DNA of 63,799 nt, filler included, from Platydemus manokwari (lineage: Eukaryota): assembly GCA_037951405.1 (NCBI GenBank). It is 6 parts of 6 records of this genome, joined end to end, with 100 filler letters (N's around TTAATTAATTAA, not from the genome) between each part and the next. Parts side by side here need not be neighbours in the genome. Positions count along the whole stretch, not along the records: positions 38,169 to 54,359 come from JBBMOY011201432.1; 5 more parts are not named here. One strand, written 5' to 3'. The translations under genes and the position numbers were made by a program. This document shows positions 14,697 through 61,099 of this stretch, piece by piece. The notes under the pieces are model-generated. The model saw nothing but the letters and a program-made list of their open reading frames with translations, did not search any database and had not been told where the DNA came from. Position 1 is the first letter of the stretch, and each line of letters starts with the position of its first letter.

Positions 14697-15698
<1,002 letters not shown>

Positions 15699-35500: not shown

Positions 35501-36307
35501 AAAGCATCTTTCTCAGTTTATTAAGGGGAAAATATATTTATGTAGATTTATTCTTGAACGAAACAATATGAGATATTAGAATCAATTAAGCAACCAATAA
35601 TAAATGTATGTATGGCGAGTCTGGAATACATCACAACATTTCACAATTATCAATCCATAATTGTGCCCTTGATTATGAAAGTGGTATAAATCATATATTT
35701 CTTGTTTGGAGATATTAAGGAATTTACATGTTAAAGAATTAAAAAATATTTGTGTAATATGGAATGAAATATTTTGACAATTAATTAGCGCCGGTAAATC
35801 AGCATTTAATATGATTGTGAAATTTATTACCATTTTTATATGGAAATTTGGTTTTGAAAGGTTGAAATGACTTATACCACTTTCATAATCAAGGGCTCAA
35901 TTAGTTCAATGATAAAACAAATAAAATGCTGCACCTGTGATTACATCTTTAATGCTTTCAAATACCAAGAATCCAACACCAGCATAAGGAATTATGCCCA
36001 TCAATGTTGGATTTATGCCTCGATATAATGCCAATAATCCTTCCTCCTTTCTCATTATTCGTAAAAGATCCAACAGATTTCCATATCTGAACAGATATCA
36101 ATGGGAACCCATTTATGAATCATGATATTAAAAATAATATTTATAATTGAGACAAAAAATAAAATGAAAACAAAATATAAAACAAAATCCAACCTCGCAA
36201 CATTTGTGACTGCCATTCGTGCTCTAGCGAGATCTAATGGATAGGTGCACAAGACCGATGTCATACCAGCCAGTGAGCCACAAATAAAATTTAAGAATAT
36301 AATTTTA
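32545..36307 (-). CDS. SLC25A42: Mitochondrial coenzyme A transporter SLC25A42, last four exons (36307-36194, 36086-35935, 34058-33930, 32729-32545); 5' exons not seen
   Basis: Carrier signatures [63 protein letters not shown]; GT-AG sites with consistent phases. Confidence 0.9.
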
Positions 36308-36649
36308 CTGAAATAAATATATGATTATATATAATTAATTATATAATAAATATCTTTTTATTAAAAGTTTATAAATTATTGAATTATAATGATTGTCATC
36401 AATGGGTTTAGAAACACTCACAATCCATTCAGGAACTATTATAATCAGAATAGCAATGACACTGGGGCGACATGGTTCATCTATCAATATTACAACTTCA
36501 TCATACAACACATTTTTGTAGTTCGAGCATTTTTCAATATATTGAGAAAGAATAAGGATAAAATATCACTGAGGAATATTACAATACAAGAACGAGAAAC
36601 CCATGTAAAAGTCTAATTAGCAATTTCAACAACTGTTATAATCCATATG

Positions 36650-38168: not shown

Positions 38169-38818
38169 CCAAATTTTATTTTGTATATATTTTTGCATTT
38201 TTCGAATAATTAAAAATTTCAATTAAGTAATATTCAAAGTTCGTTTACCTTTATTTTTACCTGAAAATTCTTGACACTAATAATTGATTTTATAAAAAAA
38301 ATACACATTAAGGCTTAATCAATTTCAGATTTTATCATAATTAATTTTAAATGTTGAAAGTACTATTAATTTCTGTCATAGATTTCTTGTTTTAATAATG
38401 AAATGTAATCACACCACAGTTAAATCATCTGTTACGTTTTCTATTATTAGAATTATTTTCTGAATTTCATCATAAGTTCAGAAGTTCCTGTATCGAAATA
38501 TATTCTAATATAAATTTCAACCATTATTATTTATCAATATCAACTCTTATCAGAGTTACCGGCAAAGGGAAATTGGTAAGAGATATTTATTTCTTAATAT
38601 ACACAAATAACAAATTCAAAACTAAACGATATATAACTATTTTATTACCAAATAAAATTTTAAGTCGATATTGATAATACAATGCGTTCAAAAATTGTAC
38701 TTTGTTCAAGTGACATGCATATCTGTATTTTATATGGTTTGCATGCATTGTTTGCATAGGTAGCATTTAAATAATCATTATAAATAATAATCAATTTTAA
38801 AATTTATTATTCATTCAG

Positions 38819-40216
38819 GAATTGAGAGAACGCAAATATCTATGGATATATCACAAAGACAAACACAAATGAAAATATCTATACCAAAATTAGGCAAACG
38901 TTTGCCAGTGTGGCGATTATTATTGCGAATGCCTATTAAAAAAAGCTGGCTTTTTAGTTGGAATTTGTTAATGATGTTTCAAATTTTCTTACCACTTAAC
39001 ATCACATCCCGCTTATGGGGATGGATAAATGGTCTTGAACTGCCGGTTTGGACAAGAGTTTATATTTATAGATTTTATAGTTGGGTTTACAAATGTGATT
39101 TAAGTGAAATGGTTGATCCAAATCTTAAAGCCTACAGCAATTTAAGTGAATTTTTCAGACGTTCTATCAGACCTGAATGTCGACCCATTGATAGATCTTC
39201 TTTGGTTAGTCTTTATCGATTGATTTGTTTTTCTTCTTTACTTGATTTTCTGTAATTATTTTTATATAAAAATTATCTGATTTGCTATTTATTGAGCATT
39301 TCTTTCCACGATAGGTCAGCCCAGTTGATGGGAAAATTGTGTCAGTGGGTTCCATTCATGCAGGACAACTGCAAAATGTGAAAGGCATCAGTTACACCCT
39401 TAAGGGCTTTCTCGGTCCGATCAGTTGGAATGAAACCGTGAATTTCACGAGTTTCTTGGAGAAAAGTTATCGAAGCATGAAATCGTCAGACAGAAATCGA
39501 TCGGATAAAATCGATGAAAACAATGCCAATTTTATCGATGAACTCAAGCATGACATTTCGACCAAGCTATTCCATTGCATCATCTATCTGGCACCGGGTG
39601 ATTATCACAAGTTTCACTCTCCAACCGATTGGAATTTGACATTCCGCAGACATTTTCCAGGTTAGTTGGCTAGATCCAGACAGGACATATTGATTTTGTG
39701 CACGCACTCACGCTTTATTCACCTCTTTTCTCCCCCCATTCAGGCAAACTGTTGACGGTTAATCCGCTGTTCTCGAGTTGGATTAAAAATCTGCTCTGTC
39801 TCAATGAGCGTTCAGTGTATGTGGGCAACTGGCGATATGGATTTTTCTCGTTGACTGCTGTCGGAGCTAATAATGTTGGTTCAATTCTGGTGGGCTGCGA
39901 TCCGCTTTTGCAGACAAACAAACCCACCAACCGGCTGTTGAGAGGCGTCATCAGAGGTTGGCATATCATGTCACGTGGCCTGAGTCCGGCTGACTCTCTT
40001 CCAAAGATGCAGCAGCGTTATTACGACAAGAAATTCGTTACCAAGGACAACGGAAATATCGGTACCAAGATTACGAAAGGGGATTTATTTGGAGAATTCA
40101 ATTTCGGCTCAACGGTGGTGCTGATTTTCGAGGCTCCATCTGATTTCAAGTTTTCTGTCGAGGTGAATAGCGTGGTTAAATACGGGCAAGCGCTTGGTAA
40201 AGTGGTTCGGGATTAG
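38819..40216 (+). CDS. PISD: Mitochondrial phosphatidylserine decarboxylase proenzyme (exons 38819-39204, 39315-39660, 39744-40216; possible small upstream exon ending 38575)
   Basis: SRLWGWIN, NLSEFFRR, SPVDG (Asp), YLAPGDYHKFHSP (His), AVGANNVGSI, GEFNFGSTVVLIFEAP (self-cleavage Ser); splice phases consistent; start codon not located. Confidence 0.95.
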
Positions 40217-41049
40217 ATTTATTTTCCAGCTTATCAGACAGATCCTCAGATATTTGGTGCAATATATATCTTTAGCGGTTTTTAATTGACGCAATACTCG
40301 ATGTTTGATGATGATTTCGAATGATGATTTTGATTGGATGATGATGGTCGATTCTGATTGGCTCTTTAATAATATGATTGTTGTCATAGTTACTCTGTGC
40401 AAAATTTAAAACATCTATATGTATTGATATTGTTTTCGTTATGAGCTTACAGTTATGCATTGCAAAATTTCGAATTATTATGCGCTTTCATTTTTACAAT
40501 TCGACTTCCATGGACTCCTGAGGACCTTACTGTCATGGTGTTTATATTTTCGATTTCAATTTAATGATAAAGTTTAAACTTGAAATATAAATTTATATTG
40601 AATTTGCTCAAATCATGTGACTAACTATGCTGATTATGACATGACAGTGATCAATGTGATCCTATTCTGTCGTTGAATGTTTGGATTTTAAAATAAATAA
40701 TTTTATGTTTTCTATAAACGGACGAAAATCTATTATAATAATCTGAAAATAAGTTGATGAATCAGAAATGGGAATTACTAGACAATAGCAATGAAATAAT
40801 GAGGTGAATTTGTGGGCAATATTTGATCGATAAGTTCAGGGTTTGTAAATAAACAGATTAGTAGAGATTATTGCTGTCTGTTGTCAATAAGTATGCGAGA
40901 ATTGAAGTCAAGTACCGCTTGCTTGATTTTAAATAGGCTAATAAGGGGGCATTTATAAACAAATATTATTATTAATGTATTAATCTAGTTGATTAGTATA
41001 ATTATTTATGAAATAAAAATAGAATCGACGTGACATGTGTTTTGAACAT

Positions 41050-44000
41050 TTCTATGGCACTAATCAAATATTTACGTCGATATAAATGAGGAAATCTGAT
41101 TTCCTTTAATATTATTGATTGATGAGAATTTATTCAAACCATCATTAAGAATTCTTATTCTTGAAGTATCAATCATTAAAAGGATCACTCATTAACAATA
41201 TTCTATGATTTCAGGTGACCAGCCTTTATAGTTATTCTTATACACGATTTATTCATAGAAATGAACAATTATCAAGTGTATATTTCTATATTTCAAGATC
41301 AGTACGGGATCATAAACGCGCTAGACTGTTGTAAAGATATTAACAAGCTCATCTCTCAAATTTGTGAGATCTGTCACTTCATGATAATCATAAATGTTCA
41401 ATTATAAAGATGTAAAATAATAAGCCCGGATAGAACATAATTTTTGCAACAGTTCATCTCATATAAACGTATATCATCATCAGTCTAATCCACTAAGGAT
41501 TGTTCTACAGTTACCTCAGCTAATTGTTCCTTTTTGTAAATATCTTTCAATCTCTTTCGAAACTTTCTACACTGAATTGCTCATATTTCTCATTGGTTTA
41601 TAAGTTATTGTAGTTATTGTACTGTATTCATGTTGTGTTTGTCTTCATATAAAATATCAAATCCATTACATGATAACCTTATTTGATTGGTGATAATTAT
41701 CGCTTATATAAATTAAGATTCTACTTTCTATTTTATATATCTTAAATAAAGATTAAAATTCTCACAAGATTTTGTTCTTCAAACTAATATCTTCATCTAA
41801 AATATTCAACCTTTGTTCCCAGGGATCAAAAATCGATTGATTGATTATTTGAAATCCCACCATATATTGGAGATAAGAAGCTGATATTGAATTTACAATA
41901 TATCTTGAAGTCCGGAACACACCATAAATAAAATTACCATTGATTCGAGAGGGCACAATGAATGTTAAAATTTCGATTAAAGATGAAATCAAGCAGAAAA
42001 ATCCTGATTAACATCAACCTTCAAACTCCAGAAATTAAAAAACTGTGACTACTTTCATCAATTAATTAAAACGAAATTAATATACGAATTCTATAAATAA
42101 ATTCATATTAAATAATGAAGTTCTTCTCCTAGCAGCGAAATATATCTCGAGTCACATTCGCAAATTCTCAATGGTTAATATCGAGACCTGATTAAGTTTA
42201 CGATTTCGTTCAAGAACTGGGATCATTTATCATTCTGATAAACATATTTTATTAAGGATTTCGAGTTCTATATTATTTAATGACCTTAAATGAAATAGTA
42301 ATGTAGAGTTCAAGTCAAGGTGACGATTTAAAATTGTATATTCGATAGTTATCGACAGGTACTTAGTGTTGCTGATAAGTTTAAAATGCTTATCGGTAAT
42401 AATTTTATTATTGTCACACAGTATCGAAGAAAATATCAGTACAGTGAAACAAAAGACACTTTTCTAGTCGAATTTCTCGGAATTATTCGGTTTTGTAATT
42501 CTTCTCATTGTCAACATGGTAAAGGATTGTCTTCTGTGAGTAGGAAAAAAGGAATTTCGTTATTAATAGCTGAACTTGGAAAACATTCCAATTAGCTCAG
42601 GTTAGAAATTTATTTTCAACGTTTTTCCAATAGTCAGACTTATTAACTTTTGAGACAAACAAACCCGTCCAAGCAAGCAATGGAGCGAATCATCACGGAG
42701 TAATTATCACGGAATCTCTTGAAAAACCCATCATACCATATTTGGACCTATGAAACCGTAAACCGAGCTCTTTTGTTTCGAACTGTCTTCAATCAAATAA
42801 ATTAAAAATTTTCCAGTTTAGGAGATCTTAAAGACATTCAGAAACAAGTCATATCGGTGATCTAATTCTAAATCTTTAATTCAATAACTGCATCAGATCA
42901 CCAATTGAGATGAACACTGATAAATATCAATAGGATTTTGGAAAATATCTCCCTATAAAGGTTTGCAGGAAAAATTAAATATTTATTATTTTTTATAAAT
43001 TCTTTTATAATTCTCGTGATAATAATGTCGATCGATATCCAATCGATATCCATGGTCTTGAAAAAGAATATTTTAATTGAGCTTTCAGTATATTTATGAT
43101 TTTCTAAAATCAATTATCAAAATCATCGAGAAATAATTCCTCCTCAGGCTACCACGGATTAAATAAGCTAGTTCAAATAATCGATAAGTTCAACAACAAA
43201 GAATTTTACTTTCTCCGCAAAAAAGTAATAATATCTCAATTAATTATTTCCCATTTTATTATTATATCAATCTGAATAAAAATATTTCGATTTTGAATTA
43301 TATTTTCTACTGCAACAAGCCATACAATCATCCGGATCAATTTCATATCGAGTTATCATCAGAATTTTAATATTTTTACAGTAAAAAAAATTGGGAAATA
43401 TATGTTAGCATGGCTCGTATGAAAGGTTGGAGATGTGGGTCAATCGATTGAATCATAAGACATCACTTGATTTTCAATGGAAGAAGAAATAAAATAGTAA
43501 GTAAGGGTGTAAATATTCGTCGATAATTCAACGCTGCACTCAGTTAATATTTGCATTTTTATTGAAGAAAATGTCACCGAAACAGGTCCAATTATATCGA
43601 TTATAGAATTTATACCATTCATTGTTTTGAATTCAATTCGAACGATTTCCAACTAGTTTCGAAGATTAATAATGCTCGGTAGAATTTCTTGAGATAGGGA
43701 GTACTGCAAATTTCTCTTTATAATTTATCGATTGATGATTTAATTGTCCTAAAATCGAAAACAATCGACTAGCATTGATTCTAAATGATGTATTTTTTGA
43801 TAATTTCTGAGAAGTCTCAGATTTTTGGTTCCATCACATGGCATCAATAATCCAGTTTATCAAGACTCAATTTAGAGATATGAATATCATCTACTGATTT
43901 GTGACTCTCTTGAATTCGGGTACTATCAACCAATGCTTTCCAAAAATTAAAGACAAGCAATGAAGCATCTTAGATTCACTCCAAACAATCAGTGGTGCTT

Positions 44001-45500
44001 GTCACCAACCATAATTGGTCCTAGCTGGATTTGTCAATTTATCTTTGTCTAGGAAACACTGATAACAAAATTTATCGTGAATTGATGTGATTTTATTGGA
44101 TCAGTAGATGATATTCATATCTCTTATTTTGTTTGAATCTATTATAATATATTTTGTTTATATGGATTAAATTGAGAATGATATTTCAAAGTTATTGATT
44201 AAAACAAATAAATAAATTTAGCCGAACATGTTTTCCGAGTATGCTTCAATTTATCACGAGACGAAACTAAGATCGAAATTCCCTTCAAAAAGAGAACTAC
44301 AATCAATAATGACAGCTCATTAAAACAAATCATAAATTATAAACACCAATTTGATCAGCAAACTTTGTGATGGGTTATTTTTGTGTTATTCAAAGGTAAT
44401 TTCTAATTTTATGTTTAATTGATATTCAATTCGTTTTTTCTCGCCCTGTATAAAATTGGCTGTATGTGCTGATTTGAGATAGCAACACTATCATAATAGG
44501 TGATCAAAAAAGAGAAGTGAGATAAAAGTAAATTTTGTGATATGGTTTTGAGTTATTGATTAGTGGCTAGACTAGAAATGAGTACAAAACTATTCTATTG
44601 ACGAATTACTTTTTGGAATTGACTATAATTGATAATCGATTATTCAGTAATGGGCATCCGGTATTCAATCAATAAACTCTCATAATCCTTCAAATTATCA
44701 TTTGAAGTTTTTAATAATTTTTACTTAAAAAATATTGTTCTTCAGAGTCATCTTCAGAGCCATACTTGAAACATTTCCAGTTAAGGGAATATTCAAATGT
44801 GATCTCAAACTAGTTTCCAATGGAGACGTTATTAAAACAAATTTGAATCGATAAAACACATTGTTTGCGAAAAAATAATTTTAAAGTTATTCCACGTGAA
44901 AAAATAGTTCAATTCAGTGGCTAACAAAGCTGGGTGACGAGATAAGTTTTAAATCATACCTAATGAAATCTCTGGGTGAACAAATTGTCGTGGATGTCAA
45001 CACAGTACGCACAAAATATTACCCGCAAACCAACGCTCGTCTTTGGTACAAAGTTAAATATATTATCAAAAGATTAATTATCTTACCGCAATCGTGAAGT
45101 ATATCAGAAAATAGAGCAAAGAATAACTAATTAACCTTCGCATCATCAAGTCGTCTAATGAAGAAAGTAGACATTTGATCATAGATAAAAGGAAAACTAC
45201 GCGGAATGATAAACATATATCATACTCATTAAATGATTATCTCTTGAGAAAGTCCAAGATATCATTAAGTACATGAATGATGAGATATGAAAACTAGTGG
45301 TGCAATAAATTAGATGCTCAACCTATTTATGTCATTGAATGTGTTGCCTAGATTAACCCCTGATTTCATCAATATTTTAGTGGGTATTTCATGAATATAT
45401 TCTTTAATTTTGGTTAGAATTTCCACACAACGCAACATTATATCGATTATTACTCCAAAAATGCTAAGTCAGATAAGATATTTTAAATTTACGCCAATGA
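41050..45500. mobile_element. Cluster of decayed Ty3/Gypsy-like fragments in both orientations
   Basis: Protease-like INGxxxxxxxxTS...NSIS (-, ~41.9 kb); FLGIIRF (+, ~42.5 kb); GHP and YYPQTN integrase-like traces (+, 44.65-45.05 kb). Confidence 0.4.
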
Positions 45501-48443
45501 ACATCAAAAGTTTTTAAAAAGTTTCTAATGATACTTTTGCTTGTAGAGTCTTTCAAGAAATTATCCACATTATTTATACATTATTAATATAATATTAATA
45601 TTTATTCCTAATAAATTTTAATCATATCACAAAACATGATCAATATTCTGCTCATATTATATGGATTATTATTATCAACTATTCGGTGAAAAATATTTTA
45701 TTAATCTCAAACTGAACAAGATTTTCTTATAATCGAAAGTTCATTATTTGTTGTCATTAAGCGAGCAGCTAATACTCTCATAATGAGTTAGATTTCAATA
45801 ACACCTCTTAGATTTAGTATTGGCACCGGGAAAATGGAGCGAAATTATTTCCGTTGATCGATGAGCCTTTTATCAATCGATAGGCAACAATATCCATTTC
45901 TTGACTGCAGGACGTGTTATTTGTTAGGTTTTCAGTGAGATTTGCTTTGAATATATTCTTCACGATGAATTATATCAGCCAGCCAGATCATCCAATCCAG
46001 TTACAAATGATGGGTCGCAATATTTGATATCTGAGTACGGTTTTCAGTTATAAAATCGATATCGATTCATGGGAGGACAATATTTTGATTTCATATTAGA
46101 CAAATATTTTTTAATAATTGCTAAATCTGTAACTTCAGATCTTCCTGGAATAAAGTCGCATAATTGTTCCAAATTTTTAGGAATCACAGTCAATTCAGGT
46201 CATTAATTACTGCATAGGTTTCATCTTCAATATCTCGACTCAAATCTTTAGCTTGGAATCGTTTATAAAGATTTTTAGAAATGTTTTATCTTATAGATAT
46301 TTATGCCTTCAAAATATTTAATGATAAACAAATCTGTTTACATAATCGATTAATTGTTTTGATATTTAATAAGCGCAGTGTAAATTCGAAACTAGCTCAA
46401 ATTAGATCTGACTCTGCTTTAACCAAAATTTCAACTTTGATTTTCAATGATAAAATATATAAGTTATTTGAAACAAGTAAAAAAAAACTGTTAGTAGCGG
46501 ACACCTCATTGAAAATTTGAAATTCGTCAGAATTGGTTATTGAGAAATTTTGACGATGTTGTCACAAAATGTTTGGATATTGTATTTGAATTGAGCTTCA
46601 TCACTCGATGATGACGAAACAACTGTGAATAATATAATATTTTATTACATTCTGTTTTCACAATCGATAGCTATTAACGTAACAACGATGGATCAGTTTC
46701 AAGGTCAGATTGTAATTTAAACAAAGACTACAATAGTCTACTCACTTAAGATCGTCATGAGTGGAAGTATATTACAGGGCATCAGTGAGTAGATTTGAGA
46801 TCTCATGCTCATCACATTTACTATTTCGAGATTATGTTAGGCAATCATGGAATGAGACTAACAATCTCACGATAAATTATGATGAGTCCAATAAAAGGAA
46901 AATATCGATAATCTGAAACCAAATTAATTTAGAACAATAGAATGAAATGTGTGAAATGTTAATAGAAAATTGATAAGTTTAGTAAACTTGAATGATGATG
47001 ATATACGTCATGATATGCATGGGTGATGAAAAAACAAAGATAAGAAAGATGGGAAAAGTCGTGGAAAATACAAGATGAACAAAAAAATTGATAAAGAACA
47101 GTTATGAAACTCAGAGACAGTAATAAAAAGTCTAATATTAGAATAATAGAATCAAGACATTTTCTATTATAGATATTGTGCTATTCTGATCAATAAAGAT
47201 ATATCGAAAATACACGACAACGCAGAAAATTGAAAGTTGTAAAATGAGGATCTAATTTTGTTTCGAATAAAGAAGTAACTAACGAGTATTTAATGTTGAA
47301 TTCCAAAAAGAAAGTCACGTGTAGCATGATGAAATATTAAAAATGAAGACAAAATATAAAAAATGGAATCTCAAGTAATACAGTATAATGCATGTACAGC
47401 TACCTGAATTCTATATTCTCTACAATATCAAATTGGAATCTCAAAAAGTATGTTAAGGATCAGAAGAACTGTCAAGAGAAAATTTATTAATACCCCTTCA
47501 GTACACCCCCATCTGTTATTATCAGATAATCATCATAATCGTTAGCAATTGAAAATAATAATGATAGAAAAATGAACAGAGAAATTTGTTGTGTATTTTT
47601 GAATGAATATCGATTTTAACGAAATTATGTGCAAAACTGTTTGTTTAAATCGTATTTGAAATGCCGGAATAATCTTTATCTGCAATTCCTGACATTTACT
47701 TTCTCCTTAACGAATCAAATTATTATTTCCATTAACTCTAATTAAGAAAAATGTTTTCAAATTTTAATTATTTAATCCAAAAGTTAATTTCAACTCGATC
47801 AGCATCAACTATTCGATTTCAAGCTCTACGAGAATATTTATACTAACGAATTATAAACTGAGAGAGAATAGCCAATGAAAAACCATTTAAAGTATTCACT
47901 TGTAATTAAATATGGATTTGTTTTCAGTTATTATTTATCTTTATCTGTGTAGCGCTATTTACTGATTTTAGCAGCTAGTAATTTCGAATAATTCTCATAT
48001 CAAATATCTGTGACAACCGATATTCCTTCAATCAATATCTTTCACTCTTCAAACATATTTGGTGATTAAAAATAATTTCGTGATTAAGGCATTTCTATAT
48101 GAAAATTGTGTGTTGAAATGATTTTATTTGTATTGATTTATCGAAAATTATTAATAATTAATTAATTAGATGATTTAATTAATTAATCGTTTAAGCCAAT
48201 AATCAATAAATTTTAAAAATATTTTCATATGAGTTACATCATTATTTAACCCGGAATTTTACTGAATCTCTCAAAAAACTTTCCCCATTCAATATCCTTG
48301 AGGCGATTAAAATTGAAATTAATATTCAAAATGAAAATAAATCAACGTTAATAAAGTTATTTAAAAATAAGGAATTCAATACAACACGATTTATTATTTC
48401 GGAATTTAAATATTAAAGCTAAAATTGTCTATTTTTAGAATAA

Positions 48444-48448
<5 letters not shown>

Positions 48449-48478
<30 letters not shown>
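48449..48478. repeat. (ATT)n microsatellite
   Basis: About 10 ATT units. Confidence 0.85.
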
Positions 48479-48481
<3 letters not shown>

Positions 48482-48646
48482 ATAAATTAAATTTACTTTG
48501 ATTTCTGTTCAAAATATTATTTATTTTTCCTAATAAATTTATTTTATCATTTTTTTAATTAAATAAATAATAAAAATATTGATTTCAAATTTTTGTGGTG
48601 ATAAAATTTTGTTGGAATAATATTTGATAAAATATATAAATTCAAA

Positions 48647-50155
48647 ATGACTGATAATATGGTTTGTTATGTTTGTTATGAAGAATTTAGCACAAATTTT
48701 GATAATTTCGCCATGTTTCAATGCGATCACAAGCTCTGTATTGAATGTATTGACTTGATGATATTCAATAATCAAGATCTCAAATGTCCTTTCGACAATA
48801 AACTCGTTGACATTATTTACAATCAAACTCTCTTCAAAACAATTGCAGAATACACATTGGATTTATGGGCTAATAAACGAAAATCAAAACAAGCTCAATT
48901 TGAAAATTATTGGTGGAAGTTCATTTCAAGTTTTGTAACTGTTGTCAATTCGTCGTTGAAAATTATAAATGGAGATGATGAAACAAGTAGAACAATAAGT
49001 CATAATTCCGATAAGATAATCAAACAAAGCCAGGCTCTGTCTGAAATTCTCAATAATACACTTTACCAGATCAAGAAATCATTCTCAGAACATCAGGCAG
49101 AGAAAGAGATTCGTATAATCGAACATTTTTTGAAAAAATATCCCCGACAACAAATTCCACCTTTTGATTACAATATTCTCAACAGCAATTTTATATTTGA
49201 GATAACTGCTCATTGTTATGAATTGAAAATGTATTGCCATTCGTTGATGATGATCAATGACTCACGCAAAACGAAACTTAATCAATATCTCAAAGAGGAG
49301 ATGAACTATTTAACAGGAATTACTATTTCACATCTTACCAACAATCAACATATTTATCACTTAGCACGTCCTGATGTCATAGCAACCGATATTGAGAAAT
49401 GTTTGATTTGTTGTTCATTGATCAACGGAAATGAATTCGCCATGTTTCCTCAATGCCAACACAAAAGATGTTTACATTGTATCGAAACATGTCTAATTAT
49501 GCATGGCAGTTGCCCGTTTGATGGTAATGAAATTGTAAATTTGCAAATTCCAGAAACTACCGAGTCGGTACGAGTATATATATCGAGTAATTATCGAAAT
49601 ATTGCCACCAAATTATTTAACAGATGTATGGTGAATTATATCAAGATAGTCAGCAGAACGTCGGATATATTTCGTGATACACCAGATTTAATGAAAGGAT
49701 TAATAGACTATCGAGCAAATAGATCTGAATCGATAATCAAACGAATTGTAGAATTGGTACGAAAAGAAATAAGTCGAAATGAATTGAGTCCTATTCTTTA
49801 CGAAGAGAAACATAAAAAGACATTCTTAATCTTGAAATATTATCTGTCTAAATTTTTGGAGTTTGATGGGTTTGTCAATGAATTTGCAGTCGTTGATAGC
49901 ACAGTGATCGATATGATTGGCGAGTGCCTATATTTCACATCTTCCTATAGTTATTTATCAAAGTTGAATTTGGAATCAAGTGATTTTTGTGTAAGAAGTG
50001 TGGAAAATTTACTCAGACGCTTTAAAAAGTTTGCTCATTTCTTAGAACGATTCGAAACAAAACAATATTGCGATGAACATTTCTTTGAGTTTCATAATCA
50101 AGTGATAAAGTTGAAGAATATCATTAGTGCTCAACAGCACCATTTCCGTATTTAA
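48647..50155 (+). CDS. Intronless 502-aa protein with two tandem RING (C3HC3D-type) + helical modules; putative E3 ubiquitin ligase
   Basis: RING1 C-x2-C-x15-C-x-H-x2-C-x2-C-x12-CPFD from aa 7; RING2 C-x2-C-x14-C-x-H-x2-C-x2-C-x10-CPFD from aa 252; both contain FAMF; 1.5-kb open frame in very AT-rich DNA; AATAAA ~200 nt downstream. Confidence 0.85.
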   Translation: MTDNMVCYVCYEEFSTNFDNFAMFQCDHKLCIECIDLMIFNNQDLKCPFDNKLVDIIYNQTLFKTIAEYTLDLWANKRKSKQAQFENYWWKFISSFVTVVNSSLKIINGDDETSRTISHNSDKIIKQSQALSEILNNTLYQIKKSFSEHQAEKEIRIIEHFLKKYPRQQIPPFDYNILNSNFIFEITAHCYELKMYCHSLMMINDSRKTKLNQYLKEEMNYLTGITISHLTNNQHIYHLARPDVIATDIEKCLICCSLINGNEFAMFPQCQHKRCLHCIETCLIMHGSCPFDGNEIVNLQIPETTESVRVYISSNYRNIATKLFNRCMVNYIKIVSRTSDIFRDTPDLMKGLIDYRANRSESIIKRIVELVRKEISRNELSPILYEEKHKKTFLILKYYLSKFLEFDGFVNEFAVVDSTVIDMIGECLYFTSSYSYLSKLNLESSDFCVRSVENLLRRFKKFAHFLERFETKQYCDEHFFEFHNQVIKLKNIISAQQHHFRI

Positions 50156-50765
50156 TCTGAATAATCTTATACAAACGTCATGTGCCTGAATGTGATCACC
50201 TCTGATAGTCTAAACAGTACACTGGTTCTTCCAACTAACTATGTGATTCACTAAATTTCTTTTTTAAATCAATAATCACATTCTTCTGAACATGAATTGA
50301 TTTATAATATTTTCCAAAACATTTTCAAACATATCTTGTCACAAGAATAATAAATAAGAGTTTATAGTAAAGAAAATTACGTCAATATCTATCACCAATA
50401 TTGGGCATACTGGATCTGAATGTGTTCTATGAAAGGATGCAATTTTGATTTTATGATGATAAAGTATACAAGTTGGTTAATACGAGTACACGAAAACCAT
50501 TAAAAGTTCTTGGAATTAATTAAATTTTGAAATTCGCTAAAATGAGTCATTTTTATGAAATTTGTTTTATCAAATTAAATTAAACATTTCTAAACAAATT
50601 GAAATTGAAAAAAGAGCGCTTTATTTGTTACCGATCTTAATCAGGAATATCGATATTAAAATATATCAACTTTTACCATTTATAATAGTTGCGGACATTG
50701 AATGTGTTAATGAGTTGAAATCCAATATAGAAGAAAGTAAAATGAAAGGTAATTCAACCAAAGTT

Positions 50766-51330
50766 AATGAAATGAATTTTTTAGATCTACTTGATATTTT
50801 TCCTTCAATTCTTTAATATGTACTCGTTTGGCTTCTTGTTGTAATCAATTTGCAAATTTTATATTATTATTCTTCATTTTTAAAATGTCCTCCCGTAAAT
50901 ATTTAATAATATCATTAGCTTTAAGTATTTTTACATAAGTTAATATATTACCCTCCAAAACTTTTAGTTGGAATAAATATAATTTATCAATACCGTGTCT
51001 AATTGCTTTACACGAATTGGTTTCTATGAATCTGTTTCTTCTTATAACTTAATTCAATATGGGAAGTCTATCTGTTAATGGTATTTATTATTGTTAGTCA
51101 ACTAGTGCCAACAGCACAATGTAGAATAATTAATTGAAACATTTCAATCCTAGGTAAATTGGGTCAAATAATTGACACAGCCCCCAATATTCCACCAGAT
51201 ATCAAAATGTAATAATTTAAACAACTATCAAATTTATTCCATTTTTTTTTATTTTTTATAATGGGATAATAATTTTTCTAAAACTCTTCTCATTCCTGAA
51301 ATTATCGATTCTAAGCTTATATACACTTAT
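50766..51330 (-). pseudogene. Frameshifted small membrane/coiled-coil protein of the type seen in Polinton-like elements
   Basis: LLSHYKK*KKKWNKFDSCLN + Gly-rich hydrophobic stretch + CKAIRHGIDKLYLFQLKVLEGNILT; family recalled from memory only. Confidence 0.35.
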
Positions 51331-52597
51331 TTTTAATTGATGGTTTTTACACTTAAATAAAATTTAGTAATACTCCAGGTCCAGATAATTTTCTTTAAAT
51401 AAATCTCTGATTTCAAATTTTTCTTGCTCAATTAAACCTCTTCTAATTCATATAAGTTCTAAGAGATTAGGTTTTGATGGATTATGAGGAAATATAATCA
51501 AAATATATAATTTAATTTCATATGGAATCTTTAATTCCTTAAGTAATACATTATTTAAGTAAATACAAAACTTTCCATTTTTTGATCTTTTATTAATTTC
51601 ATAAATTAATAATCTCGGTTTTTTAGCCATAAAATCAATTTCTTTCTCAAATAAGAGAAAGAACATTTGTCGCAATATATAAACTCTGCTCCATGATTAT
51701 TATCCGGAAAAACAGTTCCATATTTTGTTCCAATACAGCTTCCTCGCCCACCAACATATTGAACAAGAAATACAAAACTGAATTTCATCGGATTAAAAAG
51801 CCTAAAGAGTCCCTCCATCTCTCCCACAATTCCTTTATGCCATCAAATCCAATATTATTTATTTGCCATTATAATATTCATGAAAACAGTTCCAATTTAT
51901 GAGATATAATCAATGATTCAATTTATAATATTTTTCAAATTTTGTAGGCCGCTTATCATTAAAAATCATAGTTCCAGTTTTATAACAATTAATATTGGTT
52001 CGATCTTTCTTTAAACACGCACACATTTGTCTATTTTTTGTCATTGTTAATAAAAATAAGAGATTTAAATAGCTTGTTTAAGTTCACACCTAAATTTTTA
52101 TCTACTTGTCCTCTAAAATGAAGGCTAAATTATGTAGTTATCATTTCTAACAATTTGGATTCTCTTTTACCTTGTATGAATTTTAATTGATTAACTTTTT
52201 CATTGAATAATTTTATCTTTATTTTATTTATTTTTTTTATTATCATTTATCATTACAATTATTGATTTACATACCGCATTGTTATATAGGCTGTTTATAA
52301 CTAAATAAATACATAGTTAAAATAAAATGAAACTATAATATTTATTCAATTAAAACATATAATTTAAAGCACAGAATTTATTTAAAAGGGGTAACCGAAT
52401 GCGTAAGCATTTTGTCAGCCTAAAACATGAAAGCATAATGTAAAATAAAATATTACCAACATACTTACTATATAGTGAATTTAAGCAAAAAATTTGTGTT
52501 TATATCATTTTTTAAACTATTTATACTAGTTAATAATATGTGCTTTACATAGTAATTATAATTAATTATAATATAATTATAATTTTTAATTAACTAT

Positions 52598-52885
52598 CAG
52601 ATTGAGCCACGACCATCCATCATACTCGTAGTTCAATCTGTAATTTATTATGAATTAGATTTCTCCAATGGGATTTGTCTTAACTACAATGATAAGTCAA
52701 AATTTAGCCTTATTTGTCTGTGGTTCGAGGCACTGATGAGGGCCCTGGGAGGCCAAAATACGACATTACCCTTAAAACCACCATCGTCATCATTGGAGCT
52801 ATCGTTCTTCAAGTCTCAGAGAAATAGCCGTATGCCTCTGAACTGATATACTGCTTAGGTCTACAGGGGGCCGAAATAGGACTAA
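52598..52885 (+). ncRNA. Structured element with two degenerate hammerhead-ribozyme cores sharing stem I
   Basis: CTGATGA at 52733 + ggcc/ggcc stem II; CTGCTTA at 52851 + ggtct/gggcc stem II + GAAA at 52873; 52722-52732 pairs with 52833-52844; 52704-52713 pairs with 52876-52885; 15-bp hairpin 52598-52640. Confidence 0.55.
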
Positions 52886-53174
52886 TTTTCTGCAAAAGAT
52901 AGTTTATTTATTTATTTTTATATTTTGATAACTTAACAGAATCAGGTCTACCAATACTTTCTTTCTTATTACTAATAAATTCAGATCTTTTACTTGACAT
53001 AAAAGTAAAAATTCTAAAAATTTTTTGAGTTTCATTTTTAAAATTTACTGATAATTTATTGAGATTTATTCTAGAAAACTTTCAAAATTTACTCTAGAAA
53101 ATTTAATCTTCAAATATTTATTTTTTAAAATTTACTCTTCTATATAAATCTCAAATATAATCTCAAGGATCAAA

Positions 53175-53822
53175 TTTTCATCTTTATTTAAAGTAATATA
53201 TTTATATTTTGTATTCCATTGTTTATTTACATTAAAATTAAAAATTTTCTAGAGTTTTACTGAGTAAATCTGAATATATTAAATCTTTATCCCTTTTATC
53301 AAATTTGAATAAAGTAATGAACATTTCTGATTGCTTTGCTAGGTAAATCAAACTAATTTTTTATTGATAAATTAAATTACAACTATTATGTGTTCCTATT
53401 GTATAATAAGCGGACATAATTTCTTCATTTTTTCTGTAACACAATCATCAAATATTATTAATTTTTTTAGTTTCATTTAAATCTGATGGATGTATTTAAA
53501 TCTGCAGGCATAGTTATAGCTATATTAAATTTTTTGGGAAATATTTCTGCATAAATTTCACAAATTTATCTAATAGTTAAATCTTTTAGAAAATGATTTT
53601 GTTCTCCAAACATTCCTGTTATGCTTTCTTTTAATAACTAATTTTTAATCCCGTGATATTGAATTTGATATTCTTGTTGGTAAACAGGTTTTGAAAATAT
53701 TATTAAATTATCATAATCTAAAAACCATGATATTAATTACATTTCAAACAGTGAGTTTTTTCACAACGAGCACTTTCACAAATTAATATTCTAAAAGAAT
53801 AATGAATATTTTCATGATTATT
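53175..53822 (-). pseudogene. A32/FtsK-HerA family DNA packaging ATPase pseudogene (Polinton-type)
   Basis: In order: FRILIC(E)SA(R)C(E)KT (mutated Walker A, 53795-53754); FLDYDNLIIFSK..YQQEYQ; IHPSDL; LIIFDD (Walker B, ~53460-53444); YYTIGTHNSCNLIY (cf. RGRHxN); FDLPSKAIRN; several frameshifts and stops. Confidence 0.85.
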
Positions 53823-53929
53823 AAATTTTATTTTATTTTGATTCCAAACAAAATTCATTTTAAAGTAAGAAAATGAATATTAAATTTCACAAAATAAATT
53901 TAAATTATGTTTTGATCCCACATTTTTTA

Positions 53930-54291
53930 ACACTTATTGTAACCATTATATTTGTGAAGAATGTGAAGAAAAAATTAAAATGAAGATTGTATAAGGGAAT
54001 TCAAAGATAAACTTAGATAAAATCAGAATATTTTATCAAAGAATTTCAGGATAAAGTTCATTGGAGATGTATTTCTATTAATTAGAAACTTTCTGAAGAT
54101 TATATCAGAGAATTTCAAAATAAAGTTGATTTGGAAAGTATTTCAGAATATCAAAGACTTTCTGAAGATTTTATCCGAGAATCTAAGGATAAAGTTGATT
54201 GGTCATTTATTTCATGTTATTAAAAACTAAATCAAGATCTTATCCTAGAATTAAAGGATAAAGTTGATTGGTCATTTATTTCATGTTATAG
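53930..54291 (+). pseudogene. Tryptophan-repeat (23-aa) protein pseudogene, entomopoxvirus/NCLDV type, preceded by a RING-like half motif
   Basis: Exact 69-nt period (ataaagtt at 54051, 54120, 54189, 54258); EFQDKVHWRCISIN*KLSEDYIREFQNKVDLESISEYQRLSEDFIRESKDKVDWSFISCY*KL...; upstream TYCNHYICEEC. Confidence 0.8.
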
Positions 54292-54359
54292 GGTTTTTTA
54301 AGTTTTAAAATAAATTTTGCACAATTTAAGATAATTATTTACATGAATAAGAGAATTGT

Positions 54360-54459
54360 NNNNNNNNNNNNNNNNNNNNNNNNNNNNNNNNNNNNNNNNN
54401 NNNTTAATTAATTAANNNNNNNNNNNNNNNNNNNNNNNNNNNNNNNNNNNNNNNNNNNN
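54360..54459. other. Artificial contig spacer N44-TTAATTAATTAA-N44
   Basis: Same 100-nt linker. Confidence 0.97.
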
Positions 54460-54532
54460 TTGATATTGAATTTTATTTAATATTAAATTTTATTTATTTT
54501 CTTTAAATAATTGCCTTTGAATAGAATTGAAT

Positions 54533-54690
54533 GTCGTGACTTTTCAGTTCGTTTTCTGATGCGTGTTTTATAAAATAGTAGAGGCTTACATGGTGATCAA
54601 TCATCTGGAATCGATCGGTGACTGAAAATTACAGAAAAGAAGGAGGAAGATGTTGTAACTATATAGAGAATATATAAAGAAGATGTAGAG
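54533..54690. repeat. Inverted repeat, left arm (partner ~56810-56962)
   Basis: cgtgact...ttacatgg...catctgga...gaaaagaaggag.aagatgttg...tagagaatatataaagaagat is the reverse complement of 56810-56962. Confidence 0.8.
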
Positions 54691-56809
54691 AAGATATAAA
54701 GGAAATAGAATAATTATATATTTTTATGTAGATAAATATTTTATACATTTTCAATTAATAATACAAAGAAAATCAAAGATTTTGAAAAATGGGGGGGGCG
54801 TGAGAATTGTTAAATGAATTATAATTTTAATGATTTGATTTTAAAATTCTATTGATTTGTTTATATAATTCTATTTAAGTACATAATTTGGTGTCGTGGG
54901 TTTTCAGTTTGTTATCAAACCATGCTTTGTAAAAGAGTAGCTGCTTACAAGAAGTATCCCAAATAAACTTACCGAAACCATAATTTCGGAGTCAGAGTAA
55001 ACAGTGCAAATCTTTCATTCTTGAATTTTTGATGTTTCTATAGAAATTCTAATCTTGTTTTCTTTTACTAAAATAAGCACTGAAAATAAAATTTAAGAAC
55101 TTCAACCCAGAAAAGTATATTTCTTCTAAATATTCAATCAAATTATCAAAACACATTTTCCATTATTTATTTTATTTAAAATGATTATTTAAAAAAAATT
55201 ATCTCATAACTTTACAATCATTCCATTTATGAAAATAATTCTTAGACGTTCTAAATTATTTCTACTAATCTTGGCTCCATATATATTAAACCGTTCCAAT
55301 AATAACTTGATCCGTCTTTCATAAATTTAAAATAATATATTTTTAATTAATATTTCGTTTTCGAGGATTATTTACTCCCGTCACTTTATGTTGAATTCGG
55401 ATTGAATTAAAAGAATTCCCATTTTGGGAATCAATATAATTTCGCTATATAAAATTTTGAACTCATTTCATTTGATAAGATTCGTGTGTTTCTATGATTT
55501 TTAATTATTTAATCCAAATGACAGTTCCGCAAATCTACTATTTGAATCTCCGAACCCACTTGTTTTATTTATCGAGAAAGAAACTAAAGGAAATATAAAT
55601 ATTAACTAAACGGTTATCATAGTCACTGTTCAAGATACATTTATCTAAGAACTCAGAACTTTTTTATTTTTAATAAATAAATTTAAACTTCTTCGAATTC
55701 AGTTTGTCGAATAGTTTTGCTTTACTTTAGATTGGGAATCTGATATATTTCTTGATTATAAAAATCAAACAAGATGAAGATCGATATGGTCTCATGAAAT
55801 CAAACTGAAATTCCTAAAAGTAAAGAAATGATGATAGTTCCATGGGTTAATGGTGTTTATTATACAGATAAATAGCGCTTTCAACTATAAACATAGCTGT
55901 GGGATTTAAAATTACATGCGTTTTAAAAAAGTGTTTTAGAGGCGCGGTAAATGTATAAGAAAATTACCTCTTCAAAATTAGTACTTTTATTACGAGACTG
56001 CAAATAACAGAGAAATATCTGTGAAATGATATGATTCATATAAATAAGCACTCCGCCCAGTGTAAATTTTCAATTTCGTTGACAATTTATATATATTAGC
56101 AAATCGACGATAGTTTCACATTATTAAATTTACCTCAGATTTTAATTGTTTTATTGAAGTCGGATTTTAGGAAAACATAAAACTTTCACCGAGGCGGTTG
56201 AATATCGGTTTTTTTTAGTATTCACAGCTGATTTTCAGACTTAACTCTACTAATATTGCAAGAAGTAACCATTCGCGGAATATCAGTCATATATTATTGA
56301 TAGTAAGTGGATGCAATAGTCGATTAATAGATCATTGATTAATAGACCAATTGGCTCATGGTTCACCAAAATTTATCCAGGGAAATCAATGGCCATTTCT
56401 GTTATGAATCTTTAAATATCAATGTGATCTCATGATTTATTAAAATACGAGTTCCTGATTAGCTGAAATAAGAAGAATGTTTACACGATTTTAAAGTTTG
56501 ATAAGGTCTTCACAAAGTTGACAGAAAAATAATCTATTCATCTTTATTTATGTTTAAATATTAGCCGCTACTATTTTATAAAACGTTCGTCGGAAAGGAA
56601 CTGAAAAAGACACGATAATTAATCATATATTTATATACAAATATTCACTAAATAATTATAATTTTATGTAAAATTATATCTTCAAAACTTTAATCAAATT
56701 ATAAAAAACTGACATTCCCCTTCGTTTAAAATCTTTGATTTACTTTGTTGTCTCAATTGACATTGCATCGAATACTCTAGGTATTTATCTACTAAACACC
56801 TCTAATTCC

Positions 56810-56962
56810 TCTATCTTCTTTATATATTCTCTATTTAGTCTCAACATCTTTCTCCTTCTTTTCCGGAATTTTAAGTCATTGATCTACGCATAATAGAATC
56901 CAGATGAGTGGTTGCCATGTAATCCTTCATTATTCTAAAAAACACACATACATAGTCACGAT
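56810..56962. repeat. Inverted repeat, right arm (partner ~54533-54690)
   Basis: atcttctttatatattctcta...caacatctt.ctccttcttttc...tccagatga...ccatgtaa...agtcacga. Confidence 0.8.
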
Positions 56963-57410
56963 ACGGCCTTGAAATAAAGATATTAGCCTTCAATTTCAAT
57001 ACACCGACCTCGTAAACTATAGTCTCATAATATATCCTAATACGTATAGCTTAGTTGACTTTTTAGCAATTAAAAGATCTCCGACTTCAATAAATAAACA
57101 GAATGAATGAATGATATTTTCTTTTTATTTACTTACTATTTTTGACTTTATTTGTTCTTTTGTTTCCAAATATAACAGAGACAAAAAAATCGATTCCCAT
57201 TTATTCATGAATATTTATTATTGAAATTGAATATGTTTAATAATCCTATCTTTCACCATCTATGATCCTCCCATTGTACAAGTCAGTTTCAACATTGAAT
57301 TATTGACAGATCAGAAATGGATTGTATGGCTTTTGTTTTTACTGGAGATAATAAATGATTGACTAAAAACAAACTATAAAACAAAAACAAATGCAATAAC
57401 TGAAAATTAA

Positions 57411-57740
57411 TGTTTTAATTTAATGAATATTTAATTCGTAATTAATCTATAATTATTGTTTTAATTAATCAATATTTAATTCATAATTAATCCATAGTTA
57501 TTGTTTTAATTAATCAATATTTAATTAATGTTTTAATCAGTAATATTTAATTCATAATTAATCTATAATTATTGTTTTAATTAATCAATATTTAATTCAT
57601 ACTTAATATATATTTATTGTTTTAATCAATCAATATTTAATTCATACTTAATCTTTATTTATTGTTTTAATTAATCAATATTTAATCCATACTTAATATA
57701 TATTTATTGTTTTAATTAATCAATATTTAATAAATCAATA
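57411..57740. repeat. AT-rich minisatellite, ~45-nt unit, ~7 copies
   Basis: Unit tgttttaattaatcaatatttaattcata(a/c)ttaat.tat..ttat recurring at ~45-nt spacing. Confidence 0.9.
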
Positions 57741-58070
57741 TATCCAAGTTTTTTGAGCCATTTACGTTTATCGGAAACTCGACTATTGATACATATTCAC
57801 TCAGATTAAAACAAAATACGGGAAAAATGGAAAAATTGAACAGCTCTTGATTAATATTCGATCATGTTTTTATGAATGTTTATTTTTATAAATCATAAAT
57901 TATATGAGCACGATATTTGTCAATAGTTGTCGATTTGTAAATTTAATATTGAAATCTCTTGCTGATATTTGAGTCGAATCGAAAATTTGAAAGTGGAAAA
58001 TTTGTAATTTCTTATCTATAAGAATTAGATTCAGTTCATATTCGCATGAATTGAAAGTGAATTGTTACAG

Positions 58071-58657: not shown

Positions 58658-60759
58658 TGTTTTTACCTACTGTCATGTCTATGTGCTGAAATAAATTTTT
58701 GCCTTAAAATCTTTCTCGACACAATAATACATTTGACCTAAATTAGTCGTTAAAAAATCTTTTGCAACATTCAATGAAGCCGGTAAAGTCTGAATATCTG
58801 ATATCGGGAAAAGTAAATGTTTCTGTATCTTTGTTAGATTTCCGAAAATCTCGGCACATTCTTGCTGATCCATTTTTCTTTGGAACTGCTACGATTGACG
58901 AAAATCAAGATACGATAGGCTCGATATTTTAAAATATTTGCTATCAGGTCTTGGTTCACTGGTTACTGTCCGGTAATTTGCGAAATTGCTCCCATTTTAG
59001 TTTGGATCTCGTATTTAATTAAATTTGTTAATTCTAAATTAAATCGAGTAGCTATAAAAATCTCACCGTCGAACCGACAACAATCTCTTCATTGTTAGTT
59101 CAATTATATCTTCATCGCTGTGTTTCCTGTTTACATTCAATGCGTCGATAGTTCTTATTTCTGCTAAAGACGTCCCACGTGTTTTCATCGCTGTGATTCC
59201 AGCAATAAATACAGGTGAACACTATTTTAACCACGAATCTTAAAATCTATTTTTATTCGAAATTGTGGGAAGCATTATCTTTTACATTAAGTTTTCGAGC
59301 TTAACAGAAAAACCGCCAGTTAATTTTTCTTCAGACTTTTTTTACTCATTACAGTTTTCAATGAATCCGAATGCAATAACATTTATAGCTTTGATTCATT
59401 GCATTCTATTTGCATTCTATCTCTCGCCTATAAATATCCTATTAACTCGACCCTATTCACAATATAGATGTCAAGAGATTGATGCCAGTTTTTTCCTTAT
59501 CTTCAGATAGTAAATGATCTAAATATTATATTTCTTTCTCGTTTTGAATATTTTTTTCTCATCAAGTATACAAAGAGCTCCATGTATCTGTATCTTTGTA
59601 TTTCTTGATGAAAAATTGTTCTTGCTCCTCTGTTCCTAATGTCAGGCATTTATCTCAAAAAGGAAGACAAAACTTCCGAAACCTCATCTCAACATAGCAA
59701 AGACAAGTTCCGATTTTCTAAAATGCATCTCGTGGCATCGTTTTTCTTTTAAAATAATTAAAAAGCTTAGTGGCTATCATCTTTATGCATCGTGTGGTCT
59801 GTCACTAGATGCTGATACCACATTGAATTTCTATATATCTCAAGGCATCGATTCAGATTTCCTTTGGATAAGATATCTTGACTGCTTTTTCACATTTCCT
59901 GCACGAATACTCTTCATTTTTCTAACATTACCTAATGTTGTTAGCAGGTCTAACTGGAGTAACTATTTCCAAAATACCAGTATTTTCTTGAGCTTGCTGC
60001 TTTGTAGTTCATTTAAAACATATAATCATGTGACTTCCTTTATCGATATCCTCTTTACATACACTTAAATGACCAGCTAGCTTTCCCGAAGCTCATACCG
60101 TTTTACTTTCACGCCAACTCTTCGCTAACCACTGACAATTCCTTAATTTTAACATAAATCGATTTGATATTTGAAATAAGCTTCATTAAAAAAACACAAA
60201 TTGCATCATTAGTGACAGCTTCTTACTTGCTACTCAACCCTATCATTTCTTTGTCTATACTTTCAGGTACTGTTAGATTTTGGTTTGAAATAAATGAGAA
60301 ATATATATTTAAATAATTGGATAACTCTTTATTGATCTATCCCAGAAATTAATATCAAAAAATACTATATCATTGCGACAGTTCTTATCATTACTTGTGA
60401 TTAACTTTCGTATTGAGGTGTGGTTGATAAAAAGGTATTATGCGGCTAGAATTACCATAAACCAATTTTATCAATAGATATGAATATCAGAACTCCCACA
60501 TGTCAGCTCATCAATTCATTATTTGTCGTACAAAATTGAGTAGAGCTTACGTCGTGATAATATTTATTGGCTAAAGAAATACTTCAAATAATAAAATCCT
60601 TTTCAACCAATTGTCGATTGTAATGAAAACGTGTTTGAGACGACCTTCTGCAAAATAATGAAATCACAAAGTGCCATCCAGAATTGAACATAATAATTGT
60701 AAAAAATATAATCAACATTTCGATATTATTTTGTTTTGATTTTATATATTTTCTTTCAG

Positions 60760-60926
60760 TTGGACGCAAAGTTTTCCATGAATTCCTCAAATTGGAATAC
60801 AGTGAAGAAAATATCATGTTTTACAAAGCCGTAGAAGAACTCCAAGTGGAAACAAATATCAATCTTATCGAAGAAAAGGCCAGAGCTATTTATGAGGATT
60901 ACATATCGATTTTATCTCCCAAGGAA
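60760..60926 (+). CDS. Internal exon of an RGS-domain protein, RZ subfamily (RGS17/19/20-like)
   Basis: ctttcag| ... |gtacga; GRKVFHEFLKLEYSEENIMFYKAVEEL...IEEKARAIYEDYISILSPKE is characteristic of RGS17/19/20. Confidence 0.9.
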
Positions 60927-61099
60927 GTACGATGATAATTAAATTTTTATATATAATTCTACTCTTAAATAAGACCGATTTTCAAAGATGACAACTGCTG
61001 ATTTTGTTTTCGACTCACATTGTTCTTTATTTAGAAAGCCAGTACATCTTCTTATTGATAAATTGGACTCATCGGTATAAGATTCTTTTAATCGTAAGT

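Follow-up and report, generated by a model that had tools for sequence, protein, structure and literature searches.

A broken Polinton-type packaging ATPase beside a broken tryptophan-repeat gene in an animal genome sequence of Platydemus manokwari

At the right end of one piece of the window (the whole stretch of DNA analysed here, 63,799 nucleotides with linkers), a full-length but broken packaging ATPase of the Polinton type lies next to a divergently oriented, broken tryptophan-repeat gene, with a series of fragments to the left of them (Table 1). Also on the piece concerned, 38169-54359, are a RING gene, which is intact, and a spliced gene for phosphatidylserine decarboxylase; other decayed repeats can be recognised in it by eye. 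The RING gene (48647-50155), with a depth of 24-25 over the part that was mapped (from 49700), is flank and lies outside the element; its protein has no exact match in the protein collection searched. An intact frame of 516 codons adjoins the Polinton-like stretch. The window is AT-rich, with a GC content per kb of 19-41%, and in another of its contigs there is an ETS domain (E 2.4e-31), which we take to be animal-specific and to mark the host as an animal.

The window is made up of six pieces with five identical 100-bp linkers between them, each of the structure N44-TTAATTAATTAA-N44, and this core is described elsewhere, in the available text of PMC3554770, as an artificial six-frame-stop linker. 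Sequence to the right of the linker at 54360-54459 need not adjoin the Polinton-like stretch in the genome. The element had been described as cut on the right by the spacer; an artificial contig linker is indeed present there, but the tryptophan repeat ends 70 bp before it.

Table 1. Features of the Polinton-like stretch and its borders (positions in the window; a point in the strand column means no strand)
Feature	Position	Strand	Evidence
RING-finger gene, intact, intronless, 502 aa, single-copy	48647..50155	+	Pfam zf-RING, E 8e-6
Approximate left edge of repeated DNA	50480..50635	.	Summed depth 27, 93 and 170 in successive bins
Exonuclease-motif-like stretch of protein-primed polymerase B	50652..50717	+	PFIIVADIEC at 50676-50705; weak
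Broken coding-like stretch, mildly hydrophobic segment near 51223	50770..51300	-	Codon signal; depth up to 4,500
Broken Cys/Trp-rich gene, high-copy	51400..52050	-	Codon signal; depth up to 16,600
Non-coding stretch, partly high-copy	52200..52880	.	0/10 windows with coding signal; depth 237-4,128
Basic open frame, 57 codons, just downstream of ATPase	52908..53081	-	No NCBIfam match
Polinton-type A32/FtsK-like packaging ATPase pseudogene, full length	53186..53861	-	Profile and frameshift-aware alignment
Tryptophan-repeat gene remnant, 23-aa (69-bp) units, stop-interrupted	53990..54289	+	Tandem array; phrog_3532
Other sequence at contig end, 70 bp, in deepest bin	54290..54359	.	Depth
Artificial contig linker, not genomic	54360..54459	.	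5 identical copies in window

In 50480-54359 there is no stop-free frame longer than 89 codons, which explains the observation in the preliminary description that an ORF track misses the element; with a longest open frame of this length, the copy encodes no working protein. The packaging ATPase that had been proposed on the minus strand is present as a pseudogene. An ATPase profile matches this strand in order, from ~53855 to 53190, over three frames, its best single-frame match having an i-E of 1.6e-10, as against a best of 0.9 elsewhere in the window, and the frameshift-aware score of 89 was reached by none of 150 host tiles and none of 60 shuffles. The gene (53186-53861) has 6-9 frameshifts, 6-8 in-frame stops and a degenerate Walker A, makes use of all three frames, and is collinear in frameshift-aware alignment with all four relatives that were traced, over 207-221 aligned residues at 37-42% identity. 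An A32/FtsK-like ATPase such as Polintons/Mavericks carry is therefore found here in pseudogene form.

The relatives were reached through a polymerase-B motif scan of viral contigs, which gave five loci, including L002. This locus encodes a double-jelly-roll capsid (PF21738, E 3e-47), a C5 protease, a PLA2 domain and an A32 ATPase, as well as a protein of 1327 aa in which the polymerase motif occurs; its ATPase is the only ORF of the five loci that matches the window. A search with the L002 ATPase returned 1694 relatives; 119 of the 120 matches listed were used, and P0002 was excluded from the ATPase profile. All 119 of these Polinton-type ATPases score 157-231 against 53186-53861. In a control comparison with 20 Polinton-type queries, 19 were scorable, at 135-231 (L052, which has no single ORF, was dropped), whereas other viral ATPases (n=6) scored 35-67, P-loop-only controls (n=9) 25-41 and shuffled sequences had means of 28-46; this is a ranking of scores and not a tree, and its controls do not include a true poxvirus A32. 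The pseudogene scores far better against ATPases of the Polinton type than against those of other viruses or P-loop ATPases of the cellular kind. A grouping with cellular ATPases had been named beforehand as part of the outcome that would speak against a viral origin, and the scores of 157-231 for the Polinton type and 25-41 for the P-loop controls point the other way.

Single-frame scans with Pfam, PHROGs and NCBIfam did not detect the ATPase. When the single-frame ATPase was used in a word-based search, six candidates came up but no matches, and there were none among 27 viral contigs; scans with motifs derived from the window returned one unrelated match and nothing in prokaryote genomes, and no solved structure matched the ATPase alignment.

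The divergent tryptophan-repeat gene noted earlier on the plus strand was also recovered, as a 69-bp tandem array of 3.8 copies at 54026-54284 that matches phrog_3532 with an E of 3.3e-25. Of 24 viral stretches taken as candidates, the remnant matches eight, with an identity of 46-62%, these relatives sitting on viral contigs of 55-409 kb, and seven phage records, one of which is annotated as 'tryptophan repeat gene family protein'. The tandem 23-aa Trp units of the tryptophan repeat gene family (phrog_3532; named as in Bacillus phage vB_BpuM-BpSp) are present, and the identity to its members is as given above; those members lie in jumbo phages or large DNA viruses, whereas the copy here is broken and has a Polinton ATPase as its neighbour in the genome of an animal. 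The repeat is absent from the fetched Polinton loci. It was found in 8 of the 99 fetched loci, all eight having been fetched for it, and there is no Polinton core gene in any of them. Two contigs from a public sequencing run, X1, join the start of the ATPase to tryptophan-repeat sequence in the other orientation (with sides of 35 and 44 letters), which hints weakly at a common family for the two genes.

A fragment of an endogenised poxvirus, or of some other large DNA virus, would account for an A32-family ATPase beside a tryptophan-repeat gene, and the Pfam label of the ATPase relatives is Pox_A32. In the available text of PMC6540820, tryptophan-repeat EVEs in ants are assigned to entomopoxviruses, and the viral contigs that carry relatives of the repeat are large. 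The ATPase nevertheless scores 135-231 with the Polinton type and only 35-67 with the other viral ATPases in the control set given above, an integrating element would fit the high apparent number of copies, and no other poxvirus or NCLDV core gene was found in the window by Pfam. A poxvirus-like origin is accordingly considered very improbable. A limited search of PMC6540820, which pairs the tryptophan repeat with entomopoxviruses, found no mention of Polintons in the text available, and a similarly limited search of literature retrieved with Polinton terms found no mention of a tryptophan-repeat gene, which is not proof of absence.

Run X1, a single public run that contains 57% of the words of the stretch and may be the source sample, provided contigs that were mapped on 49700-54355 at 80% likeness; no RNA data set was listed as containing the stretch. 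The stretch is fitted at 80-100% identity by 2722 of 4,305,408 contigs, 215 of them at 99% or more, 364 at 95-99%, 736 at 90-95% and 1407 under 90%. Depth, summed over overlapping contigs of this one run and hence not a copy number, is 24-29 up to 50479 and rises from ~50480, with successive peaks of 4,500, 16,600, 4,100, 36,000 (in the ATPase, where it ranges from 4,100 to 36,000) and 38,000 (in the last bin) and troughs of 25-90 between them. Bins of near single-copy depth are found at 52040-52195, 52976-53131 and 53912-54067. The last bin (54224-54355) has a depth of 38,386, as against 379 in the bin before it, and it is likely that high-copy sequence at 54290-54359 caused the assembly to break. 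The rise in depth by three orders of magnitude indicates a large, diverged family, of which this locus is likely to be one of very many copies.

The left edge of the repeat is crossed by a single 2312-bp contig with 0 differences, which bridges the RING gene to 50771. Four more, all gap-free and with 0-2 differences, lie on interior parts, and none of those listed spans the ATPase; because the contigs agree, the breaks in the five parts covered in this way are not assembly errors. Contigs identical to the window have a depth of 5.5-7.7 inside the element, compared to 24 on the flank, which polymorphism or AT bias could explain. The bridging contig, the 2722 related contigs and the ETS gene, with the contigs coming from one run, indicate that the stretch is integrated and multi-copy in an animal genome.

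These contigs bear on two other explanations. One is that AT-rich DNA has produced the patterns by chance, or that the locus is a host pseudogene or reflects errors of sequencing, as might be suspected from the failure of the single-frame scans to find the ATPase and from the left-hand fragments, which are without a homolog. That the ATPase score is unmatched by the host tiles and shuffles, that cellular-type P-loop controls are at background, that short-read contigs are identical to the window and that the adjoining 516-codon frame is intact leave this reading with almost no probability; for the ATPase and the tryptophan repeat it is ruled out, a verdict that does not extend to 50560-52200. 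The other is that the high depth stems from a relative replicating as a free virus in the sequenced animals, the locus being its dead endogenous cousin. Some variants are indeed carried by a few very deep contigs (~10,300 over 13 contigs at 53262, where single-copy sequence has 24), and adintovirus DNA is reported at 25 times the level of a host gene in a fish, in the available text of PMC8502044. Thousands of contigs, half of them less than 90% alike, are however better fitted by many diverged genomic copies than by one clonal genome, and there is no long deep contig among the pieces listed (8 of 2950), which makes a free virus an improbable source.

Leftwards of the ATPase the coding signal stays on the ATPase strand, as it does in intact elements. 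The codon model behind this signal was trained on a set that included tryptophan-repeat loci, and it detects AT-rich viral-like usage only, given that the intact RING gene scores at background. Closely packed coding sequence had been described throughout the stretch, and this did not hold: none of ten windows in 52200-52880 shows a coding signal, and 50560-52200 taken alone does not rise above its null, its value of 0.27 falling short of the maximum of 0.35. Intact relatives have penton and pX-like genes where 52200-52880 is non-coding here. The Cys/Trp-rich fragments reported on the minus strand stand as regards their composition, one frame of 51451-52050 having 10 C, 6 W and 7 stops per 200 codons where 4.8, 1.8 and 15.4 would be expected, and the gene has a plausible main frame by codon signal. 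No homolog of it was found by Pfam, PHROGs, NCBIfam or a phage search, nor in the one viral contig compared, and its best value against a protein atlas, 0.78, is under the lead level.

The fragment that had been called membrane-protein-like does have a hydrophobic stretch near 51223, but it is only mild and is equalled by 2.4% of all 19-mers in the frames of the window. The relatives have a hydrophobic gene downstream of the ATPase, presumably a GasderminX-like one (a name used in PMC8502044), as in the Beta-type virion module with its membrane-active GasderminX/cupiennin genes. The position and strand of 50770-51300 would fit this gene, but two profiles and five single sequences of it are at null against 50770-51300. 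Fiber, GIY-YIG and pX-like identities were tried for the fragments and were not supported.

On the plus strand, PFIIVADIEC is present as reported, and is the best polymerase-B match of the window, as a motif only. It comes first among 127,594 six-frame positions with 38.0 against 23.0 for the next, a ranking that is partly circular because the pattern with which the pPolB loci were fetched had been selected in view of the motif in the window. Pairwise scores of the pPolB-like stretch are 36-45 against null maxima of 34-44, the match covers only 10-22 residues, and the full PolB profile is not above null on the stretch. The motif lies 2.5 kb from the ATPase and is likely, if weakly so, to be a polymerase remnant.

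For the other Polinton genes, 84 further loci were fetched, and 77 profiles were made from the 78 loci kept (the ORF set omits L001, L007, L008 and L082-L091). Only the ATPase profiles match the region, and in a frameshift-aware test the ATPase alone of 17 Polinton gene profiles exceeds the null. Profiles and single sequences of the double-jelly-roll capsid and penton, from distant relatives, are at null in the fragment, as is the rve integrase profile from relatives within 50200-54359, a gene that may lie past the contig end. Adenain (C5) protease is at null, its targeted score of 15.6 being reached by 12 of 174 host tiles, and PLA2X is not above null in the stretch in tests derived from relatives. 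Polintons end in terminal inverted repeats of 100-1500 bp and target-site duplications of 5-8 bp, according to the available text of 10.1101/2023.08.22.554363 and PMC8502044; neither was found in the contig, where no inverted partner exceeds 19 nt and the right end is unassembled. Capsid, integrase and TIRs had likewise not been seen in the preliminary description. The negatives for the genes are weak, as the relatives that could be compared share only ~40% identity with the ATPase here.

Measured against the defining features of Polintons/Mavericks in the same two sources, the stretch resembles these elements (with which adintoviruses, abundant in insects, are mostly synonymous according to the available text of PMC11296320) in its ATPase type, its weak pPolB-like motif, its integration in the host, its degradation and its multiple copies. 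It differs in being 3.9 kb long rather than 13-25 kb, with no capsid, penton, protease, integrase, TIR or TSD detected. The elements around the intact ATPase relatives carry, in a conserved order, genes for pPolB, the double-jelly-roll capsid and the C5 protease, a PLA2-domain gene and a gene in the integrase position, and the ATPase is ~40% identical to those of the intact and decayed loci L002, L009, L016, L018, L025, L032, L040, L050 and L056. Like the stretch here, fetched Polinton loci have a divergent gene upstream of the ATPase, and their hydrophobic gene, 1.5-2 kb downstream and on the ATPase strand, may correspond to the mildly hydrophobic piece at 50770-51300; no other gene of theirs could be detected in the window, and tryptophan-repeat and Cys/Trp genes are found where they have PLA2-domain, penton and pX-like genes. 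Polintons that are rearranged, that lack a polymerase or that bear cargo are described as common in insects in the available text of 10.1101/2025.02.07.637071, but those are intact and bounded by TIRs, while the stretch here is heavily decayed. As one gene feature is clear, one is weak, and capsid, integrase and protease were not found within the bounds given, this is a remnant and not a complete member.

By similarity of sequence, the tie to Polintons is limited to the ATPase and, weakly, to the polymerase motif, and the tryptophan-repeat gene, the Cys/Trp-rich gene and the non-coding part could instead be other nested repeats or viruses. The swings in depth from 25 to 38,000 with near single-copy bins among them, the lack of a Polinton match beyond the ATPase, the occurrence of the tryptophan repeat in phages and large viral contigs and not in the fetched Polinton loci, and the other decayed repeats of the contig would all agree with such a patchwork. 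Low-depth bins may, however, simply mark where this copy drops below 80% identity, and distant parts are linked by joints of low depth, for example 50913-53114 and 52458-53891 (single contigs with short sides). The two contigs that join the ATPase to the tryptophan repeat, and the coding signal that keeps to the ATPase strand as in intact elements, also argue for a common origin, so that a patchwork is thought unlikely.

The stretch, in which a broken full-length Polinton-type ATPase lies beside a broken tryptophan-repeat gene, is probably a dead, deleted and rearranged copy from a high-copy Polinton/Maverick (adintovirus-type) family. The preliminary description of an endogenised, decaying virus is supported in respect of the Polinton-type ATPase, but the locus is likely to be a member of a high-copy family and not a lone relic. 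An ancestor would have entered the germline next to the RING gene by means of the retrovirus-like integrase of the family, and the family would then have expanded, with hundreds of copies as the probable result. The copy seen here would have come to lack selection and accumulated stops and frameshifts by neutral decay, and may have lost or rearranged its capsid, its protease, its integrase and nearly all of its polymerase sequence. The original role of the ATPase would have been to load viral DNA into capsids, as is known for the family (available text of PMC8502044).

The possible link of the tryptophan-repeat gene to Polintons is the sole unusual aspect of the locus. It is conceivable, if doubtful, that the Polinton family of this animal, with hundreds of copies and maybe an active lineage, carries tryptophan-repeat and Cys/Trp-rich genes as accessory genes. 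Should this be the case, arthropod 'poxvirus' insertions called from tryptophan-repeat matches may often be Polinton cargo, and Polintons would be a route by which the tryptophan-repeat family passes between animals and large viruses. Taken alone, the locus is of little importance, degraded adintoviruses being described in many animals in the available text of PMC8502044, which includes a disrupted relic on human chromosome 7. It does flag a virus-derived repeat family that is apparently very abundant in this genome and is unannotated, and this affects repeat masking.

The window is made up of six joined pieces, as indicated by the five identical linkers, and sequences to either side of a linker need not be adjacent in the genome.

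Within the broken Cys/Trp-rich coding-like stretch of the probable Polinton-type remnant there is an imperfect 30 bp direct repeat (51698–51727 and 51872–51901), with a spacing of 174 bp (58 codons), which is perhaps an internal protein repeat. The intact 502 aa RING protein encoded to the left of the remnant has no entry in the exact-match protein collection.

The decayed integrase-like remnant on the plus strand, which from its motifs looks to be of the LTR-retrotransposon type, has no match in Pfam. The inverted-repeat pairs resemble a non-autonomous DNA transposon.

Features of the window outside the remnant
Feature	Position	Strand	Remarks
Linkers, N44-TTAATTAATTAA-N44	starts 10279, 19396, 28325, 38069, 54360		n=5, identical; 100 bp each
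ETS factor	14697-15698		host gene
Mitochondrial carrier	35909-36324		host gene
Phosphatidylserine decarboxylase	38791-40216		host gene
Candidate LTR-retrotransposon-type integrase remnant	44840-45090	+	decayed; seen by eye
Inverted copy of second RING of RING gene	45817-45876	-	short, degenerate; 3.5 kb upstream
RING gene	48647-50155	+	502 aa, intact, intronless; two RING-like domains
Inverted repeats, three pairs	54521-56884		58-72 nt, ~2 kb apart; start of contig right of 54360 linker
Tandem array	57350-57776		AT-rich, 45-bp units
RGS domain	60639-60935		host gene

Two further loci, L100 and L101, carry Polinton-type ATPases with 59–64% identity to the search query in bacterial metagenome-assembled genomes, where they are probably mis-binned host DNA.
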